From: an uncultured bacterium
GTDB lineage: Bacteria; Fidelibacterota; Marinisomatia; Marinisomatales; JABMOV01
Assembly: GCA_964654545.1 (NCBI GenBank)
Contig: CAZZIU010000004.1
Location: forward strand, 8,156-72,155
DNA length: 64,000 nt
Direction of reading: 5' to 3'
The notes under the pieces were generated by a model, which saw only the letters and a list, made by a program, of their open reading frames with translations, ran no database searches and was not told the origin of the DNA. Every line of letters starts with the position of its first letter. Position 1 is the stretch's first letter. The translations under genes and the position numbers were made by a program. Positions 54,725 through 62,937 of the stretch are shown piece by piece.

Positions 54725-56426
54725 GTTTGAGAAAATTCGTTATAAGAATTTTTTGTCATCGGGTAATAATTTTTCGGAAATTGATTTAGCCAAAGATGCA
54801 AGAACTCTTATTGTTGGTAAGAACGGGTCAGGCAAAAGCACATTGCTTGATGCGATTACCTTTGGTCTTTTTGGTAAACCATTCAGAAAGATTAACAAAC
54901 CTCTATTGGTCAACACGGTAAATGATGGCGAGTGTTTGGTTGAAGTTGAATTTAGTATAGGCACTGCACAGTATAAAGTTCGACGAGGTATTAAGCCTGC
55001 GGTCTTTGAAGTGATTCATGATGGAAACACAATCGACCAAACCGCGAGCGCCAAAGACTTTCAGGAATACTTTGAGCATCAAATCCTACATCTCAATTTC
55101 AAATCGTTTACGCAAGCGGTGATTCTAGGTAGTGCCACATTTCTTCCATTTATGCAATTGCCGGCTGCACACAGAAGAGAAGTGATTGAAGACCTACTTG
55201 ATATTCGCATCTTCTCTGGAATGAATGTGATTCTCAAAGAGAGAATAGGGCAAGTAAAGACAAACATTTCTGAGAATGAACGAAACGTCGAGGTTGCAAA
55301 CGAAAAGATTCAAATTCATCGAAAACATCTCAATAAGATACAAGATGACAGAGAAGCAGTAATAACTGCAAAAGAAGCCGATATTTCAAATACCGCTATT
55401 ACTATCGAAAATCATCAAGAAATAGTCAGCGAAAACAATAAGTTAATCGACACGCTATCCGCTAAAATTGAGAATTTTGGAAAATTTGAAAAAACGAAGA
55501 ATAAGATAGAAGGTCTGATCGATAAGATATTGGTCAAAGAAAAGAAGCTCAATAAAGAGATTGATTTCTATCAAAAGCATGATGAGTGCCCAACTTGTCA
55601 GCAAGATATTCAATCGGATTTTAAGTCTTCTATTATAGAAGACAAGAACAAGATGATAGAAGAAGTCACTTCTGGTATTGAAACGCTGAACACCAAACTT
55701 GAAAAAGTTACCGACAGCATTACCAAAATGACCACAATTAAAGATCAAATCGTAAAGCTGGAAACGACGAGTAATAATTATTCGGGTGAAATCAAAACTC
55801 TTGAAATGTATATCGAGAAGATAAACCAAGAGATTGAGAACATGCGAGCAATCAATGAAGATTTTTCACAAGAACAGGAAGAACTAGAATGCCTCGAAAA
55901 GAGCATTCAGGAATACGAATCAGAAAAAGAAGAACTAATTACAGACAATGAATTGTATAGTGTAGCTTCAGCATTGCTTAAAGATAATGGCATCAAGACT
56001 CTCATCATTAAACAGTATATTCCAGTTATTAATAAGCTCATTAATCATTATCTTGCTTCAATGGATTTCTTTGTTAATTTTACACTTGATGAAAATTTCA
56101 ATGAAACAATTAAGAGCCGACATCGTGATAGCTTTTCATACTACAATTTTTCAGAGGGCGAAAAGAAACGAATTGATCTTGCTCTACTATTCACTTGGCG
56201 AACGATTGCGAAGCTCAAGAATTCGGTTAATACCAATTTGCTGATCATGGATGAAGTATTCGATTCGAGTCTTGATAGCGAAGGTACAGAAGAGTTTTTT
56301 AAGATTCTATATTCTGTTCCAGAAGATTTGAACATCTTTATCATTTCGCACAAGGATGCATTGCAAGATAAATTCACTAATACGATTAGTGTTGAGAAGG
56401 TGAAAGGATTTAGTAAACTGACATGA
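54717..56426 (+). CDS. g46: recombination ATPase subunit gp46 (Rad50/SbcC-like)
   Basis: Walker A GKNGSGKST, a long central coiled coil with a CPTC zinc hook, a FSEGEKKRIDLAL signature, and Walker B LLIMDEVFD. Confidence 0.9.
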   Translation: MIKFEKIRYKNFLSSGNNFSEIDLAKDARTLIVGKNGSGKSTLLDAITFGLFGKPFRKINKPLLVNTVNDGECLVEVEFSIGTAQYKVRRGIKPAVFEVIHDGNTIDQTASAKDFQEYFEHQILHLNFKSFTQAVILGSATFLPFMQLPAAHRREVIEDLLDIRIFSGMNVILKERIGQVKTNISENERNVEVANEKIQIHRKHLNKIQDDREAVITAKEADISNTAITIENHQEIVSENNKLIDTLSAKIENFGKFEKTKNKIEGLIDKILVKEKKLNKEIDFYQKHDECPTCQQDIQSDFKSSIIEDKNKMIEEVTSGIETLNTKLEKVTDSITKMTTIKDQIVKLETTSNNYSGEIKTLEMYIEKINQEIENMRAINEDFSQEQEELECLEKSIQEYESEKEELITDNELYSVASALLKDNGIKTLIIKQYIPVINKLINHYLASMDFFVNFTLDENFNETIKSRHRDSFSYYNFSEGEKKRIDLALLFTWRTIAKLKNSVNTNLLIMDEVFDSSLDSEGTEEFFKILYSVPEDLNIFIISHKDALQDKFTNTISVEKVKGFSKLT

Positions 56427-57532
56427 AAGATTGGCAACACGGATATGAATTAGAATATTTGAAAGAGATTGAAAGTCGGTATTCGCTGTATAACCATCAC
56501 TCGTGTTCTCCTTTTTCTGAAATGAAGAAGAATACAATTGCAAAGGATTTGCACGAAGGAAATCTTTTCATAGAAGAATATGGCATGTATGTAGAAAAGA
56601 CTGCAAAGGTCGAATCTGCAATCAAGATGTTTGATGATGTCGTTATTGGAAAAAAAGAAAAAGGTGACCGAATCATTACGCGATTTAGCTATGAATCCGA
56701 AAGATGGTGTCGCCGTAAACTATCGCAGCTTGAAGGTCCTTGTTGGTTGGAACTTTGGGCAGAAAATTTTGAAGCAAGGAGAATTGCCCAAGAGTGTGAT
56801 TTTGTAGAAGTTGGAACAAAAGTTACGTCTTTCGGCGAACTGTTGGTTTGGCTGTTCAAAGACGCAGACAATCCTTTGTTTGAAAGGCAACATCCTCATG
56901 TGATGCCAGAAGAGTTTTACACGCTGAGAAAAGCTAGATTGTCTGAGATTCCGATTCAGCCTCTTATCGATTCGTTGGATCGTATTGATTTGGATTACAC
57001 AGACCACTATTCAAATTATAACAAGAAGCATTCTTGGTCTGCTCTCTCGTTTCGTGGATATACAAATAATCCTGCATTCATCACTAAACCAGAAGAGATG
57101 AATAAGAAGTGGAAAGAAGAGCATAAGGATGTCGTGTTTGCTATGCAAGACACGCCATTGCGAGAAAAGTTCCCGGAACTTGAACCGGTTATAAATACGT
57201 TACCAGGTGAGAAGCATAGAATACGATTAATGAAACTTGTTCCGGGTGGTGGCGAACTACAAAGACACACCGATCAAGTAGACAAAGATTCTGGAATACG
57301 AAATGGTAAGATTATGCGATTTCATTTTCCATTGATTACTAACCAAAACGTGTCGTTTACAAATTGGCAAACAAATGGAGTGCCTACGCACGCAAACATG
57401 CAAGTTGGCGAGTGTTGGTATATTGATACAAGAAAACCCCATAGTGCTATTAATTCTGGAAACAAAGATAGAATACATCTGGTTGTTGACGTAGAAGCAA
57501 ATGATACTTTGAGGGGACTGATAGGTGATTAG
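56423..57532 (+). CDS. 2OG/Fe(II)-type cupin dioxygenase, aspartyl/asparaginyl beta-hydroxylase-like
   Basis: ATGA overlap with g46. The C-terminal domain LVPGGGELQRHTDQV...MRFHFPLIT...VGECWYIDTRKPHSAINSGNKDRIHLVVDV fits the AspH-family HxD...H...R pattern. The N-terminal 190 aa or so are unassigned. Confidence 0.75.
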   Translation: MKDWQHGYELEYLKEIESRYSLYNHHSCSPFSEMKKNTIAKDLHEGNLFIEEYGMYVEKTAKVESAIKMFDDVVIGKKEKGDRIITRFSYESERWCRRKLSQLEGPCWLELWAENFEARRIAQECDFVEVGTKVTSFGELLVWLFKDADNPLFERQHPHVMPEEFYTLRKARLSEIPIQPLIDSLDRIDLDYTDHYSNYNKKHSWSALSFRGYTNNPAFITKPEEMNKKWKEEHKDVVFAMQDTPLREKFPELEPVINTLPGEKHRIRLMKLVPGGGELQRHTDQVDKDSGIRNGKIMRFHFPLITNQNVSFTNWQTNGVPTHANMQVGECWYIDTRKPHSAINSGNKDRIHLVVDVEANDTLRGLIGD

Positions 57533-57535
57533 ATT

Positions 57536-58318
57536 ATGTTATTTGACGAGGCAGAAACTTATTTGAATAGAATTGGTGATTGGGTTGATCCAAATCCAGA
57601 ACCAATCATTATGGAACACGAAGGCTTTGTTGTTGTTCGTGATGACTTGCTTGGTGCTGGAACAAAAGTTCGTGGTCTTGACTATTTGATCGGTCATGCT
57701 CCAGAATACAAAAACATTAGAGAGTGGGTGTTTGGCTCTTGCCCTGCGACTGGTTATGCTCAGATTAGTCTGCCTACTGTATGCTCGCGTTACGATAAGC
57801 GTGCCGTTCTTTTTATGGCAAAAAGAGATCCAAAGAACTTTCATCCGTATCAAAAACTAGGCATTCGTGCAGGAACAGATTATCGGTGGGTGCCAAATGG
57901 TATGTTGAATGTGACTCAAGCCAGGGCGCGTGAATATGCAGAAGAGTCACCCGAAACGCGAAAAGTTTTACCTCTCGGTCTAGAGCATCCATATGTAACT
58001 GCATGTTTCATTAAGGTTGCACGTTCATTGCCCGAGCCAAAAGAGTTTTGGACTGTTGGTTCAAGTGGTTCATTAAATCGTGCGTTGCAATTAGCATGGC
58101 CAGATGCAGATGCTCATGTTGTTTCTGTCGGGCATAAGATGAAGGAACGCGAAATTGGTCGAGCGAAATATTATCGTTCAGATTTGAAATTTGATAAAGC
58201 AGTATTAGCAAAGGACGAACCACCCTTTCCCTCTGCACCCACTTATGATGCAAAAGCATGGAAGTTTGTGCGCGAACATGCATCACCTGGTGCGTTGTTT
58301 TGGAATGTTGGTGCTTAA
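57536..58318 (+). CDS. PLP-dependent enzyme, ACC deaminase / D-cysteine desulfhydrase family (short, 260 aa)
   Basis: VVRDDLLGAGTKVRGLDYLI aligns with [24 protein letters not shown] of Pseudomonas ACC deaminase, placing the PLP lysine at K44 (nt 57665-57667). EHPY, the VGSSGS loop, and the C-terminal PTYDAKAW / FWNVGA also align. Confidence 0.7.
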   Translation: MLFDEAETYLNRIGDWVDPNPEPIIMEHEGFVVVRDDLLGAGTKVRGLDYLIGHAPEYKNIREWVFGSCPATGYAQISLPTVCSRYDKRAVLFMAKRDPKNFHPYQKLGIRAGTDYRWVPNGMLNVTQARAREYAEESPETRKVLPLGLEHPYVTACFIKVARSLPEPKEFWTVGSSGSLNRALQLAWPDADAHVVSVGHKMKEREIGRAKYYRSDLKFDKAVLAKDEPPFPSAPTYDAKAWKFVREHASPGALFWNVGA

Positions 58319-58326
58319 TATTTATT

Positions 58327-59004
58327 GTGATTTCTGAGACTAAAGAATTCCTATATAGTACAATAAAAGAATATGAACATATTGCATTGTCGTGTTCTTT
58401 TGGTGCGGCTGAAGGCATGGTGATCATAGACTTATTGGATAGTCTTGATATTCATATTCCTATATTTGTGCTTGATACTGGAAGACTACCTCAGGAAACA
58501 CACAATTTGATCGACCGTATACGAGATCGCTATGATGTCAATATCGACATGGTGTTTCCAAATTCAGATGAATTGTTTGATCTGGTTAAGACAAGGGGAC
58601 CAAACTGTTTCTTCGATTCGGTTAGTAATCGCAAGCTCTGCTGTCATGTGAGAAAAGTGGCACCACTAAAAAGGTACATGGAAAATAAAGGATATAAAGC
58701 ATATATATCAGGAGTGCGAAAAGAACACAGCGAAGAAAGATCAAAAGCAGAACGCATCGAAAAACAAGCCGATGGTATGATCAAGATTAATCCACTATGC
58801 GACTGGACATACACTGACGTATGGGAATATGTAAATGCAAATAGCGTTCCAGTGAACAAATTACACACAATGGGATATGAGTCAGTTGGCTGTGCTCCAT
58901 GTTCTCGACCGGGAAAAGGTCGAGACGGTCGTTGGTGGTGGGAAAATTCAAATAAAGAATGTGGCATACATGATTATGGTCACACAGATGGGTCAGGCAT
59001 ATGA
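58327..59004 (+). CDS. cysH: assimilatory sulfonucleotide (APS/PAPS) reductase CysH, Fe-S-cluster type
   Basis: C-terminal KECGIH (58957-58971) matches the CysH ECGLH motif. The CC pair (58639-58644) plus CAPC (58891-58902) form the APS-reductase Fe-S signature. ALSCSFGAEG is the PP-loop-like N-terminus. A GTG 58327 start is inferred, because the track ATG at 58258 overlaps the upstream gene by 61 nt. Confidence 0.85.
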   Translation: MISETKEFLYSTIKEYEHIALSCSFGAAEGMVIIDLLDSLDIHIPIFVLDTGRLPQETHNLIDRIRDRYDVNIDMVFPNSDELFDLVKTRGPNCFFDSVSNRKLCCHVRKVAPLKRYMENKGYKAYISGVRKEHSEERSKAERIEKQADGMIKINPLCDWTYTDVWEYVNANSVPVNKLHTMGYESVGCAPCSRPGKGRDGRWWWENSNKECGIHDYGHTDGSGI

Positions 59005-60596
59005 AGCATTTTTATGAGCGAAACGACTATATACTCAATCATGAAATCAATAAGAATTTTGAAGAGATTTTGTGGATGAATGATACGGAGTTTCGGCAAT
59101 GGGTGATTGACATGCGAAAGGTGATTGCTTATGCTTGGGATGAGCTAGGCATTCCTCCTCGTGTTGGATTCAATGAAGATCAAATCATCGACCAGTTCAA
59201 CAAACTTGATTCTTTTCCTGTTCACGGATTTGTACAGACTGATGAAGTGACTGGTGAAAAAGATGTTATTCGTAACACATCTGTTGTAGGTAATGCTGCC
59301 AATCAGTGGTTTCCTACAATGATGGCAACCAAGATCAATTATAAAAATTCTTCTGACGGGCTCTCGATCTACGATCATTTTGTGCGTGATGATTTGCTCG
59401 AAAAAGTGACTACTTACTCTCGTAGGCACTTCAAACGAGACAGTTTCTATCATTACTCGCTTCCAGTAAAGGCTCGCGATCAAGAAAATTTTGTGTTCTA
59501 TGCTGAGACTGGAGCCGAGTGGATCGATCAATTCGAGAAGAATGAGCGTCAATATGAACGAAGTGATTATTGGCTTTGCCCGAAGAAAGAAGATGCTAAG
59601 TACACAGGTTACAACGAGAAACTAAAGAATCAGACATGGCTTACTCTTACTAAAGATGAAATTGAGAGCATAAATATACCTGAAAAATGTAAAACAAATG
59701 TTGATTATGACAAAAGCGAACTTTATCAGATAAGGTACTTCTCTTATGGACAAAAACTCTTTCCCCTTGGACTCAAGGCCTTCCGAATCTCTTGGTGCCA
59801 ATACGCAGTCAACTTCCCACCGCTCACCGCGAAGTATCTATATGAGACGTATACGGAGAGCTTGGTCCGAGAAAAAACAAAGTCGCACACAGAGAGTGAT
59901 CGCATTGTTATTTATGATCCCAGTAGTGGTTGGGGTGGCCGTATTCTTGGCGCTATGTGCGTTCGCCCTGATCGCACTATTCATTATATCGGCACCGATC
60001 CTAATACTGACCATGTTATTGATGAGCGCAATGGGAGCAATTATACAAAGTATGAAGACCTTGCAACTTTTTATAACGAAAAAACTTATCGAACTCAAGG
60101 ACTATTCCCGAAAGTAAATACATATGAGCTATTTCAAGATGGCTCTGAAGTTATTTCACAGAATGAAAAGTTTCAAGAGTACAAAGGTAAAGTGGATCTG
60201 GTGTTCACTTCACCTCCATACTTTGCGAAAGAGGCGTACTCTCAAGACGAGACACAATCTTATAAAAAGTTTGGTGAGTATGATGAATGGCGAGATGGGT
60301 TTCTCGTTCCTACATTAGAGACGTGTGTTGAATGGTTGGCACATGAACGATATCTTTTGTGGAATATTTCAGATGTTAAGTTTGGTAAAGATATGTTGCC
60401 TCTTGCAGAAGATTCGCAGAAAATTCTTGAGTCTCTAGGTATGAAATTTGTTAAGATATGGAAGATGTCGATGGCACAGATGCCTGGTGCAAACAGACTT
60501 GATCCCGACACAGGACTCCCAATGGCTAAATATTCCTGTAAGGTCAAAGACATTTGGCTGAAATACGAACCTATATTTGTATATTATAAACCATAG
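59001..60596 (+). CDS. DNA methyltransferase, (S/D/N)PPY type (N6-A or N4-C), with about 280-aa unassigned N-terminal half
   Basis: Motif IV DLVFTSPPYF (SPPY at 60210-60221). Motif-I-like IVIYDPSSGWGGRILGA lies about 110 aa upstream and is preceded by NFPPLTAKYLYETY. The start has an ATGA overlap with cysH. Confidence 0.7.
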   Translation: MKHFYERNDYILNHEINKNFEEILWMNDTEFRQWVIDMRKVIAYAWDELGIPPRVGFNEDQIIDQFNKLDSFPVHGFVQTDEVTGEKDVIRNTSVVGNAANQWFPTMMATKINYKNSSDGLSIYDHFVRDDLLEKVTTYSRRHFKRDSFYHYSLPVKARDQENFVFYAETGAEWIDQFEKNERQYERSDYWLCPKKEDAKYTGYNEKLKNQTWLTLTKDEIESINIPEKCKTNVDYDKSELYQIRYFSYGQKLFPLGLKAFRISWCQYAVNFPPLTAKYLYETYTESLVREKTKSHTESDRIVIYDPSSGWGGRILGAMCVRPDRTIHYIGTDPNTDHVIDERNGSNYTKYEDLATFYNEKTYRTQGLFPKVNTYELFQDGSEVISQNEKFQEYKGKVDLVFTSPPYFAKEAYSQDETQSYKKFGEYDEWRDGFLVPTLETCVEWLAHERYLLWNISDVKFGKDMLPLAEDSQKILESLGMKFVKIWKMSMAQMPGANRLDPDTGLPMAKYSCKVKDIWLKYEPIFVYYKP

Positions 60597-61760: not shown

Positions 61761-62867
61761 ATGGGTAAATTTATTCGATTATTTGTAAGTGTAATTGTTA
61801 TGACCTTTATGGCTACTGCCGCAACTGCGGACGTACCTGTATGGGAGAACGGAGACCGTTCATTTAGCATTGGTGGTGCTCTGCGTACTAGTGGAGTTGC
61901 CGATTTAGATGATGGTAAGGATTTTGACGTTCTTGTAGATAATGCAAGAATCAATACTTCAGCAAAACTAAACGACTCTATTGATGCCGTAGTAAGCATC
62001 GAAAAGCGAGATGGTGAAGATATAAATCTACTTGATGGTTTTGTCAATGTAAAGGTCGTTGACAAACTTCAGGTTAGAGGTGGTCGCTATAAGGTAGCCA
62101 CCGATCGGAGCAATCTTGTATCACCATTTAATCAACTCGTTTGGAGTCCCGCTTCAGTCGTCAATCGCTACCCAGATACATATGACCGAAGAGCAGAGGG
62201 CATTTCTGCTTGGTCTAATCTTGGTAACCTCGGTGTATCTCCTTCTAACGATGGAGACCTAACACCTAAGTTCAAGTATTATCTTGGTGTGTTTACTGGA
62301 GTTAATAATAGTAACAACCCTATGGTAGCACTTCGAGGATCAGTTGATTTAGCTGATGTTGAGGGTGGTTATGATCTTGCTGGCACTTACTTTGGTCAGA
62401 AGGATATTTTTACACTAGGTGCCTCCTTTGCTAATCAGGAAAATGCATTTGGTGATGGAGACAATTTCACTGCATTTTCGTTTGATGTACTCTTTGAGCG
62501 AGACATCGAAGAGCTAAAGGGTACGCTTACACTTGGCGCATCTTTGAATGATTATGATCTAGATGATGCGTACTATACTGTAGGCAGCGATGTCCGCGAT
62601 GGTCGCGGTTATATGATCGAAGCTGGATATATTCCATCTTCTATTGTAATTGCAAAGGGTACTCCACTTGAGGGTAGAATCCAGCCCAACTTTAGATTTC
62701 AGAATTTTAAGTTCGGTGGAGCACAAAAGGGACGAGAGCAGCAGTTTGATGGTGGCTTAAACTATATCATTTCGCCAACAATTGTGGCAAATGTGAATTA
62801 TAGTCACAACAAGCTGAAAAAAGCTAAGTCTGAGGATATTACATTTGGTATTCGTTATAATTTCTAG
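61761..62867 (+). CDS. outer-membrane beta-barrel porin-like protein (possibly OprO/OprP phosphate-porin-like)
   Basis: Sec signal peptide MGKFIRLFVSVIVMTFMATAATA|DV. There are no other hydrophobic helices, and the sequence has alternating beta-strand patterning. The C-terminal ITFGIRYNF is an OMP beta-signal with a terminal Phe. LLDGFVNVKVVDKLQVRGGRYKVATDRSNLVSP resembles the Porin_O_P conserved block (from memory). Confidence 0.65.
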   Translation: MGKFIRLFVSVIVMTFMATAATADVPVWENGDRSFSIGGALRTSGVADLDDGKDFDVLVDNARINTSAKLNDSIDAVVSIEKRDGEDINLLDGFVNVKVVDKLQVRGGRYKVATDRSNLVSPFNQLVWSPASVVNRYPDTYDRRAEGISAWSNLGNLGVSPSNDGDLTPKFKYYLGVFTGVNNSNNPMVALRGSVDLADVEGGYDLAGTYFGQKDIFTLGASFANQENAFGDGDNFTAFSFDVLFERDIEELKGTLTLGASLNDYDLDDAYYTVGSDVRDGRGYMIEAGYIPSSIVIAKGTPLEGRIQPNFRFQNFKFGGAQKGREQQFDGGLNYIISPTIVANVNYSHNKLKKAKSEDITFGIRYNF

Positions 62868-62906: not shown

Positions 62907-62937
62907 CCCCCAACCTGTAATGGGTTGGGGGTTTTTT
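62907..62937 (+). terminator. intrinsic terminator after porin gene
   Basis: 9-bp stem CCCCCAACC (62907-62915) / GGTTGGGGG (62923-62931), 7-nt loop, then TTTTTT. Confidence 0.85.

Follow-up and report, generated by a model that had tools for sequence, protein, structure and literature searches.

A short PLP protein of a T4-like phage is distantly related by sequence to DNA-tailoring decarboxylases and is coupled to an N6/N4 methyltransferase-like partner

What does a pyridoxal 5'-phosphate (PLP) enzyme do in a T4-like phage when its gene lies beside cysH, a gene of assimilatory sulfur reduction? The question is raised by a 64,000-nucleotide stretch of contig CAZZIU010000004.1 (the window), in which the open reading frame (ORF) at 57536-58318 on the + strand encodes a protein that we call PLPL. 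An earlier note, made from the sequence by eye, read PLPL as an unusually short relative of 1-aminocyclopropane-1-carboxylate (ACC) deaminase (AcdS, ACCD) and D-cysteine desulfhydrase (DcyD), and suggested that it opens the ACC ring or eliminates sulfide or sulfite, which would tie it to cysH. The ORF is real, with an ATG start and a product of 260 amino acids, and the fold, the closest enzyme branch and the catalytic lysine named in that note all stand; the sulfur-metabolism function and the loss of small-domain parts are not supported. Instead, PLPL is probably a tailoring enzyme for DNA hypermodification that works with a methyltransferase-like protein, MTL, encoded downstream of it.

The structural assignment comes from an AlphaFold2 (AF2) model of PLPL built on the family alignment (pLDDT 93.3, pTM 0.90). 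In Foldseek searches its best PDB match is 1j0a, a Pyrococcus ACC-deaminase homologue (E 1e-11, TMq 0.80), with further matches to DcyD (4d8t), threonine deaminases and ACC deaminase. There are 299 PDB matches at E ≤ 1e-3, and the top 50 are all fold-type II PLP enzymes. As modelled, PLPL has the two-domain alpha/beta architecture of the tryptophan synthase beta superfamily and is a fold-type II PLP protein and a predicted PLP binder, with the resemblance to the ACC-deaminase/DcyD branch that had been noticed from the sequence. Direct profile searches do not recover this relationship. PF00291 and the NCBIfam subfamily models, to which the earlier note had looked for a placement, do not match PLPL itself (NCBIfam none at E ≤ 1); PF00291 reaches 5 of 25 PLPL relatives, all below the cut-off (best E 1.9e-5). 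PDB sequence searches with PLPL, by phmmer and with a 25-sequence profile, returned noise only, and hhalign of the PLPL profile against E. coli DcyD aligned the lysine block only, at E 0.05.

Residue by residue, PLPL and E. coli DcyD align collinearly over their full length, which bears out the four ACC-deaminase-like blocks picked out by eye; together with the conserved homologues, the model and its structural matches, this puts the resemblance well outside chance. VVRDDLLGAGTK44VRG of PLPL pairs with IKRDDVTPMAMGGNK51LRK of DcyD, GSSGS (175-179) with the phosphate loop GSAGT, PTY237D238AKAW with PVY287T288GKAM (K240 falling on K290), and ALFWNVGA with ILFIHTGG. Across 25 aligned homologues K44, R35-D36-D37, G175-S-S-G178, Y237-D238 and K240 are invariant, and in a further 19 divergent members K44 and G178 of the phosphate loop remain invariant and K240 nearly so. 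From this alignment we predict that K44 forms the Schiff base, that G175-S-S-G178 is the phosphate loop and that Y237-D238 corresponds to the Tyr-loop of ACC deaminase and DcyD. Fold placement and Lys44 conservation, the two computable points on which the original assignment could have failed, both hold. The residue after Y237 is a conserved acid, D238 or occasionally E. In this PLPL resembles ACC deaminase, in which Glu295, at the pyridine N1, occupies the D238 position; DcyD has Thr there. Such an acid would favour chemistry that needs a strong electron sink, of the carbanion type, for example decarboxylation.

The resemblance to metabolic enzymes ends at structure, lysine, phosphate loop and Tyr-loop. 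PLPL is ~16% identical to DcyD, AcdS and PH0054 (the protein of 1j0a) and ~70 residues shorter, and it lacks their S-N-H loop: the DcyD substrate loop S78-N79-H80 becomes G73-Y74-A75, and G73, Y74, A75 and Q76 are invariant within the T4-like clade. The shortening lies mainly in the C-terminal half. In the alignment with DcyD, 67 of the 74 unpaired DcyD residues fall outside 48-161, the limits that we take for the small domain from the Salmonella DcyD structure, so the missing parts lie elsewhere than the small domain. The short length is common to the entire family, with every one of the >728 PLPL homologues found measuring 253-298 amino acids.

The family itself gives the first indication of function. 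PLPL matches phrog_7093 (E 1.9e-33 across residues 27-260), which carries the label 'threonine dehydratase' and has gp52 of Pseudomonas phage M6 (YP_001294560; E 2e-159) at its core. The family, which the earlier note did not count among standard phage auxiliary genes, is therefore already known from phages. With a relaxed threshold, tblastn aligns 88% of the PLPL length with a ~260-aa gene of M6-like Pseudomonas phages, and this gene is that of gp52. Comparison of the PLPL profile with gp52 by hhalign gives a probability of 97.3% and E 2.2e-11 over 218 columns, placing K44 on K36. The two proteins have the C-terminal signature PFPxxPxYDxKAW...FWN[VI]G in common, gp52 has the same Asp as D238 of PLPL, and they are similar in size (278 aa for gp52), with an identity of only ~24%. 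Both gp52 and its counterpart in Salmonella phage ViI, gp226, have been purified and show PLP absorbance at 410-425 nm (Lee et al., NAR 2021, PMC8989533). They decarboxylate amino acids already tethered to thymine in DNA, converting Calpha-glycinyl-T to 5-aminoethyl-dU and O-seryl-T to 5-aminoethoxymethyl-dU; K36 was named as the probable aldimine lysine of gp52, and gp226 was modelled on pdb 1j0a (PMC8989533), the same structure that is the top match of PLPL. PLPL thus shares with gp52 and gp226 the PHROG (7093), a 1j0a-like fold, viral origin and the position of the PLP lysine (K44/K36). By sequence comparison PLPL is a distant relative of DNA-tailoring decarboxylases, a family whose tested members are not free-metabolite lyases. 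An identity of PLPL as ACC deaminase, DcyD or CuyA was rejected because the subfamily models are unmatched and the nearest characterised relative, gp52, acts on DNA.

The family is nearly missing from cellular genomes. An exhaustive profile search yielded 1427 cluster representatives, almost all viral, and among 185,579 species genomes of cellular organisms the family occurs at 6 loci, all in metagenome-assembled genomes (MAGs). The PLP family is therefore restricted to viruses. Unlike DcyD and AcdS, it is also fused to DNA-modifying domains, and PLPL itself lacks an NCBIfam or Pfam match. Within the family, the surroundings differ. The M6 gp52 gene sits among those for aGPT-Pplase (gp51), a radical-SAM protein (gp53) and a 5-hydroxymethyl-deoxyuridine (5-hmdU) kinase (gp54), whereas PLPL and its closer relatives are linked or fused to N6/N4 methyltransferase-like and Asp/Arg-hydroxylase-like proteins. 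Because the gene partners differ from those of M6, the target base and the appended group in the PLPL pathway are probably different as well.

In the window these partners are MTL and a protein that we call AspOH (Table 1). MTL matches PF01555 (E 1.4e-6, 28.8 bits against a cut-off of 26.7) and carries methyltransferase motifs in the order X (NFPPLTAKYLYE), I (DPSSGWGGR, ~306-314) and IV (TSPPYF, 403-408), preceded by a conserved N-terminal region of ~270 amino acids. A word-index search found 2119 MTL homologues, many with PF01555 on record, and DPSxGWGGR and TSPPY are invariant in MTL relatives. The AF2 model of MTL (pLDDT 84) has a Rossmann-type core that matches S-adenosylmethionine (SAM)-dependent methyltransferases; Foldseek aligned only this methyltransferase core and gave no informative match for the N-terminal ~270 residues. 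A motif IV of the form S/C-P-P-Y is of the amino-methyltransferase type, with SPPY commoner in N4-cytosine enzymes. MTL is accordingly like the ParB-fused and orphan N6/N4 methyltransferases of phages in its PF01555 match, its S/C-P-P-Y motif IV and its D-P-x-x-G motif I, features that it shares with the methyltransferase halves of gp1 of Erythrobacter phage R6L, described below. It differs from the ordinary PF01555 methyltransferases of phages in a motif order that is permuted relative to the Pfam model, in the extra N-terminal domain and in the systematic coupling of its family to a PLP domain. We predict that MTL, as the N6/N4 amino-methyltransferase-like partner of PLPL, flips the target base out and attaches to it the group that PLPL tailors. 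At two loci (L060 6770-9921 and L066 6761-9912) the PLP gene is followed by two tandem MTL paralogues, each ~40% identical to the MTL of the window. AspOH matches PF05118 (E 2.6e-11, 44.1 bits against a cut-off of 22.6), bears an H-x-D...H motif (RHTD...KPH) and resembles cupin Fe(II)/2-oxoglutarate (2OG) oxygenases.

Table 1. Genes of the PLPL locus, in window coordinates.
Gene	Position	Strand	Description
AspOH	56423..57532	+	369-aa; C-terminal part Asp/Arg beta-hydroxylase-like; PF05118
PLPL	57536..58318	+	260-aa fold-type II PLP protein; M6 gp52 family, phrog_7093
cysH	58327..59004	+	assimilatory APS/PAPS reductase; NF002537, PF01507
MTL	59001..60596	+	531-aa N6/N4 amino-methyltransferase-like; PF01555

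The association of these genes extends well beyond the window. We searched 80 related viral loci, with flanks of up to 6 kb, using the window proteins. An MTL relative lies within the flank in 57 of the 80; of the 57 loci whose downstream sequence reaches 3.5 kb or more, 48 have one. AspOH, which occurs in 42 of the 80, is a frequent but non-universal third member of the module. In a 140,755-bp T4-like contig the PLP gene and MTL are both present ~35 kb apart, so the two co-occur even when they are not neighbours; the PLP gene of this contig is followed by a glycosyltransferase-like gene in replication and repair surroundings that include uracil-DNA glycosylase (UDG) and RNase H. A SAM lyase gene (PF23780; L095 14511-14990), which could be relevant to the handling of SAM by the phage, lies ~3 kb downstream of an MTL-like gene on a T4-like contig in which the PLP gene is present too.

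Fusion proteins are stronger evidence for coupling than the neighbourhood. Roughly one fifth of the top 150 PLP-family cluster representatives are much longer than 260 amino acids, and we scanned 20 such fusion-sized relatives from the exhaustive search with Pfam. N6_N4_Mtase is present in 13 of the 20. Two of them, P0298 (1081 aa) and P0309 (1138 aa), combine methyltransferase, Asp_Arg_Hydrox and PALP domains in a single chain, and the methyltransferase part of P0298 corresponds to the C-terminal half of MTL (E 5e-30). P0300 joins a hydroxylase, a YunG-like domain and the PLP domain, and P0432 joins PLP and ParB. The YunG-like domain (PF24585) is fused to PLP in five of the scanned proteins (P0296, P0300, P0305, P0333 and P0396) and has its own gene close to the PLP gene in 13 of the 80 loci, immediately upstream in L048 (5571-5999). 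The fusion partners are thus methyltransferase, hydroxylase, ParB and YunG. The contig that carries the P0298 gene (L086 6520-9765) looks bacterial. A glmS-like gene encoding GATase and SIS domains precedes the P0298 gene, and genes for serine recombinases and a PemK toxin lie beyond, an arrangement that suggests an integrated mobile element.

The same coupling is found in cultured phages. In Erythrobacter phages R6L and ZS04 a PLP domain 41% identical to PLPL lies inside a gene annotated as a DNA methylase. In R6L gp1 (811 aa; L001 4816-7238), annotated as a DNA modification methylase, this domain separates motif I (DPFAGGS) from motif IV (SCPPYG), and the protein passes PF00291 (40.6 bits against a cut-off of 35); the N-terminus reads by eye as ParB-like. 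The published R6L paper annotates gp1 as a CcrM-like methylase and leaves the PALP insertion unremarked. Six other fusion proteins likewise carry the PLP domain inserted within the methyltransferase. Microcystis phage Mae-JY30 has a PF01555 methyltransferase gene immediately upstream of its PLP gene. R6L, ZS04 and Mae-JY30 each encode the methylase and PLP pair and no AspOH, so methyltransferase and PLP form the minimal conserved pair.

Two further protein families recur beside the PLP gene. A family of 325-346-aa proteins follows the PLP gene in 12 of the 80 loci (for example L003 6804-7778 and L045 6783-7820), and a 450-461-aa protein whose gene overlaps the PLP stop codon is found in six (for example L043 6786-8159, L021 6767-8149 and L096 6816-8168). 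The larger protein has sub-threshold Pfam matches only, to GT-B glycosyltransferases, and neither family has a sequence match in the PDB. By eye the 325-346-aa family looks like T4 beta-glucosyltransferase, the computed support being one weak tblastn match (E 0.08) of the 325-aa family to an Enterococcus phage glycosyltransferase. In L021 the 450-461-aa gene is followed by nucleotide-sugar genes, by eye an epimerase, a dehydratase and a UDP-glucose dehydrogenase.

How might such a module work? A PLP enzyme requires a free primary amine beside a carboxylate, and a PLP enzyme acting on DNA would therefore need an amino acid to be installed there. In M6 and ViI it is aGPT-Pplase that installs the amino acid on which the PLP enzyme acts. 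From the computed fold, PLP residues, gp52 homology, restriction to viruses, and linkage and fusion to methyltransferase-like and hydroxylase-like proteins, we infer a DNA substrate, a target base, a transferred group, a decarboxylation and an order of steps, as follows. MTL would flip out a base and load an amino-acid-bearing group onto its exocyclic nitrogen. Our preferred guess for this group is the 3-amino-3-carboxypropyl moiety of SAM, transferred in place of methyl to N4 of cytosine or N6 of adenine. PLPL would then form an external aldimine, via Lys44, with the free alpha-amino group of the tethered amino acid and remove CO2, leaving a cationic aminoalkyl (aminopropyl) side chain. AspOH could hydroxylate this side chain, and in other lineages a glycosyltransferase-like protein could add a sugar to it. 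The likely purpose would be to shield phage DNA from host nucleases. The specific scheme, in which MTL loads a SAM-derived group onto a cytosine or adenine amine and PLPL decarboxylates it, is tentative and clearly less secure than the general role of PLPL in tailoring DNA with MTL. An analogy for the pair of enzyme types exists in wybutosine synthesis in tRNA, where TYW2, a protein of methyltransferase fold, transfers the aminocarboxypropyl group of SAM and TYW5, a cupin/JmjC 2OG oxygenase, hydroxylates the side chain. The likeness is one of mechanism alone, as TYW2 and TYW5 act on RNA and without a PLP step. Another scheme, in which methylation and hydroxylation of the methyl group are followed by PLP-mediated addition of glycine, was ranked lower, since R6L, ZS04, Mae-JY30 and about half of the loci have no hydroxylase.

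Several points weigh against a decarboxylase working on DNA with MTL. At ~24% identity to gp52 the reaction type may differ, and fold-type II enzymes more often carry out beta-elimination or beta-replacement. The MTL-like domain has relatives in cultured phages that have no PLP gene, so MTL may be an ordinary methylase, in which case PLPL would be left without an obvious amino-acid substrate. To our knowledge there is no precedent for aminocarboxypropyl transfer by an enzyme of the N6_N4 family. In eight of the 80 loci the flank holds none of the recognised partners. What follows gp46 is a variable island, where pelagiphage HTVC008M, which lacks the PLP gene, has the 325-aa gene (84548-85546); by itself, proximity of genes in T4-like genomes therefore counts for little.

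Other explanations share part of this evidence. PLPL might act on the cofactor, either decarboxylating SAM to decarboxylated SAM for aminopropyl transfer in the manner of spermidine synthase or destroying the amino-acid end of SAM or S-adenosylhomocysteine (SAH). The insertion of the PLP domain in a SAM-binding methyltransferase in R6L gp1 and the six other fusions would suit this, as would the free alpha-amino acid that SAM and SAH bear, the group that PLP requires, and a minimal methyltransferase and PLP pair that has no other amino-acid-installing enzyme. However, the characterised relatives work on DNA-bound adducts (PMC8989533), and the ~35 kb between the two genes in the 140,755-bp contig fits sequential action on DNA at least equally well. 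We consider action on the cofactor unlikely, and no PLP-dependent SAM decarboxylase with this fold is known to us. Slightly less likely again is a classical thymidine hypermodification as in M6 and ViI, with the 5-hmdU kinase and aGPT-Pplase encoded elsewhere and the methylase an unrelated neighbour. PLPL is homologous to gp52 and shares its PHROG, and the visible 64 kb of a genome that is probably >140 kb leave room for distant genes. Against it, tblastn found no homologues of M6 gp51, gp53 or gp54 in the window or the fetched loci, a search of low sensitivity on a partial genome, and neither a kinase nor an aGPT-Pplase is among the fusion partners of the 20 scanned relatives.

The sulfur chemistry that the locus first brings to mind is improbable, although it draws on real features. 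A free-metabolite enzyme of the ACCD, DcyD or CuyA type, performing C-S bond chemistry with the sulfite from CysH (for example as a cysteate synthase or lyase), would account for the fold and for a Tyr-loop like that of DcyD and ACCD; beta-replacement is typical of the fold, and the product of cysH, 8 nt downstream, looks like a true assimilatory reductase. Yet neither the ring opening nor the beta-elimination proposed for PLPL is borne out by its sequence, in which the ACCD, DcyD and CuyA models of NCBIfam are unmatched and the S-N-H loop is replaced, and its family is confined to viruses, with DNA-methylase and ParB domains among its fusion partners. A connection with cysH fares no better: cysH adjoins a PLPL homologue in 1 of the 80 loci, L005, which is a 96% twin of the window, and the conserved and fused partners are the methyltransferase-like and 2OG-oxygenase-like proteins. 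For the window lineage a residual possibility is that PLPL, if the tethered amino acid were beta-hydroxylated, could swap this hydroxyl for sulfite, the adjacency being its sole support. Least probable of all is that the PLP domain has lost catalysis and either recognises DNA or bases, in the way of a target-recognition domain, or regulates the methyltransferase. The PLP domain of R6L-type fusions does sit between motifs I-III and motif IV, which is the place of the target-recognition domain in alpha-class methyltransferases. Nevertheless, very divergent members, gp52 among them, keep the Schiff-base lysine, the phosphate loop and the Tyr-Asp pair with little or no variation, and gp52 and gp226 bind PLP and are active (PMC8989533). 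A role for PLPL in tailoring DNA together with MTL is accordingly the reading that we prefer.

What, then, is cysH doing at this locus? Its product matches NF002537 (217 bits against a cut-off of 154) and PF01507 (E 1.6e-41), shows both the CC...CxxC cysteines and ECGIH at its C-terminus, and is of the adenosine 5'-phosphosulfate (APS) reductase type within the APS/3'-phosphoadenosine 5'-phosphosulfate (PAPS) reductases. The listed ORF, 58258-59004, has a start at 58258 that overlaps PLPL; the sequence suggests that the true start is probably the GTG at 58327. Since it stands beside PLPL in a single one of the 80 loci, cysH is here a lineage-specific insertion between PLPL and its usual neighbour, and it is probably an independent auxiliary metabolic gene outside the module. 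R6L encodes a protein of the PAPS-reductase family as well (gp7; L001 2386-3429), ~1.4 kb upstream of gp1, which has a true PP-loop, SFSGGRTS, unlike the CysH of the window.

The genomic setting is that of a T4-like myovirus, with UvsW, gp55, gp47 and gp46 immediately 5' of the module genes and gp46/47 DNA ~68% identical to that of cyanomyovirus P-SSM2. After gp46 the + strand order is AspOH, PLPL, cysH, MTL, PhoH and a porin-like gene. The genes are tightly spaced, with gaps of 3 nt between AspOH and PLPL and 8 nt between PLPL and cysH and a 4-nt overlap between cysH and MTL, and no strong or convincing terminator was found between the module genes. The porin-like gene, a 368-aa ORF at 61761-62867 (+), has a signal-peptide-like N-terminus, a C-terminal GIRYNF typical of outer-membrane beta-barrels and no Pfam match; it has relatives in L005 (88% identity) and L012 (26%), and a strong GC-rich hairpin lies 3' of it at 62907-62931. 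Beside PhoH, it may be a phage-encoded porin. Elsewhere, one T4-like contig group has an FtsH-like AAA protease gene (594 aa; L003 1761-3545) between gp47 and gp46, and L095 has a ClpP-like gene 3' of gp46.

The PLP family and its two characterised members were already known. In the literature that we covered, which mostly leaves out subscription journals so that prior work is possible, we found no description of a module of methylase and gp52-like PLP protein, and likewise, within this incomplete coverage, none of a coupling of the family to N6/N4 methyltransferase-like and Asp/Arg-hydroxylase-like proteins or of its abundance in marine T4-like phages. The PLP-tailored pathways that we found described all begin with 5-hydroxymethyl-dU. 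An immediate consequence concerns annotation: members of the family are labelled threonine dehydratase, cysteine synthase or ACC deaminase in the sources, and beside cysH such labels would mislead toward sulfur metabolism. The wider interest lies in the DNA, because hypermodifications of phage DNA determine the efficacy of restriction, CRISPR and other nuclease defences, affect the sequencing and cloning of viral DNA and are a source of enzymes for biotechnology. We suggest, tentatively, that many ocean T4-like phages and the cultured marine and freshwater siphoviruses R6L, ZS04 and Mae-JY30 make an undescribed hypermodification anchored by a methylase, with optional hydroxylation and glycosylation. 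If so, it would be the first PLP-tailored hypermodification with a starting point other than 5-hydroxymethyl-dU, and its methylase would be the first DNA methyltransferase of the N6/N4 type to transfer a group other than methyl. Marine metagenomes are rich in the gene set formed by the PLP family, MTL and the oxygenase, and an unrecognised base would then be present in a sizeable fraction of the T4-like phages of the ocean.

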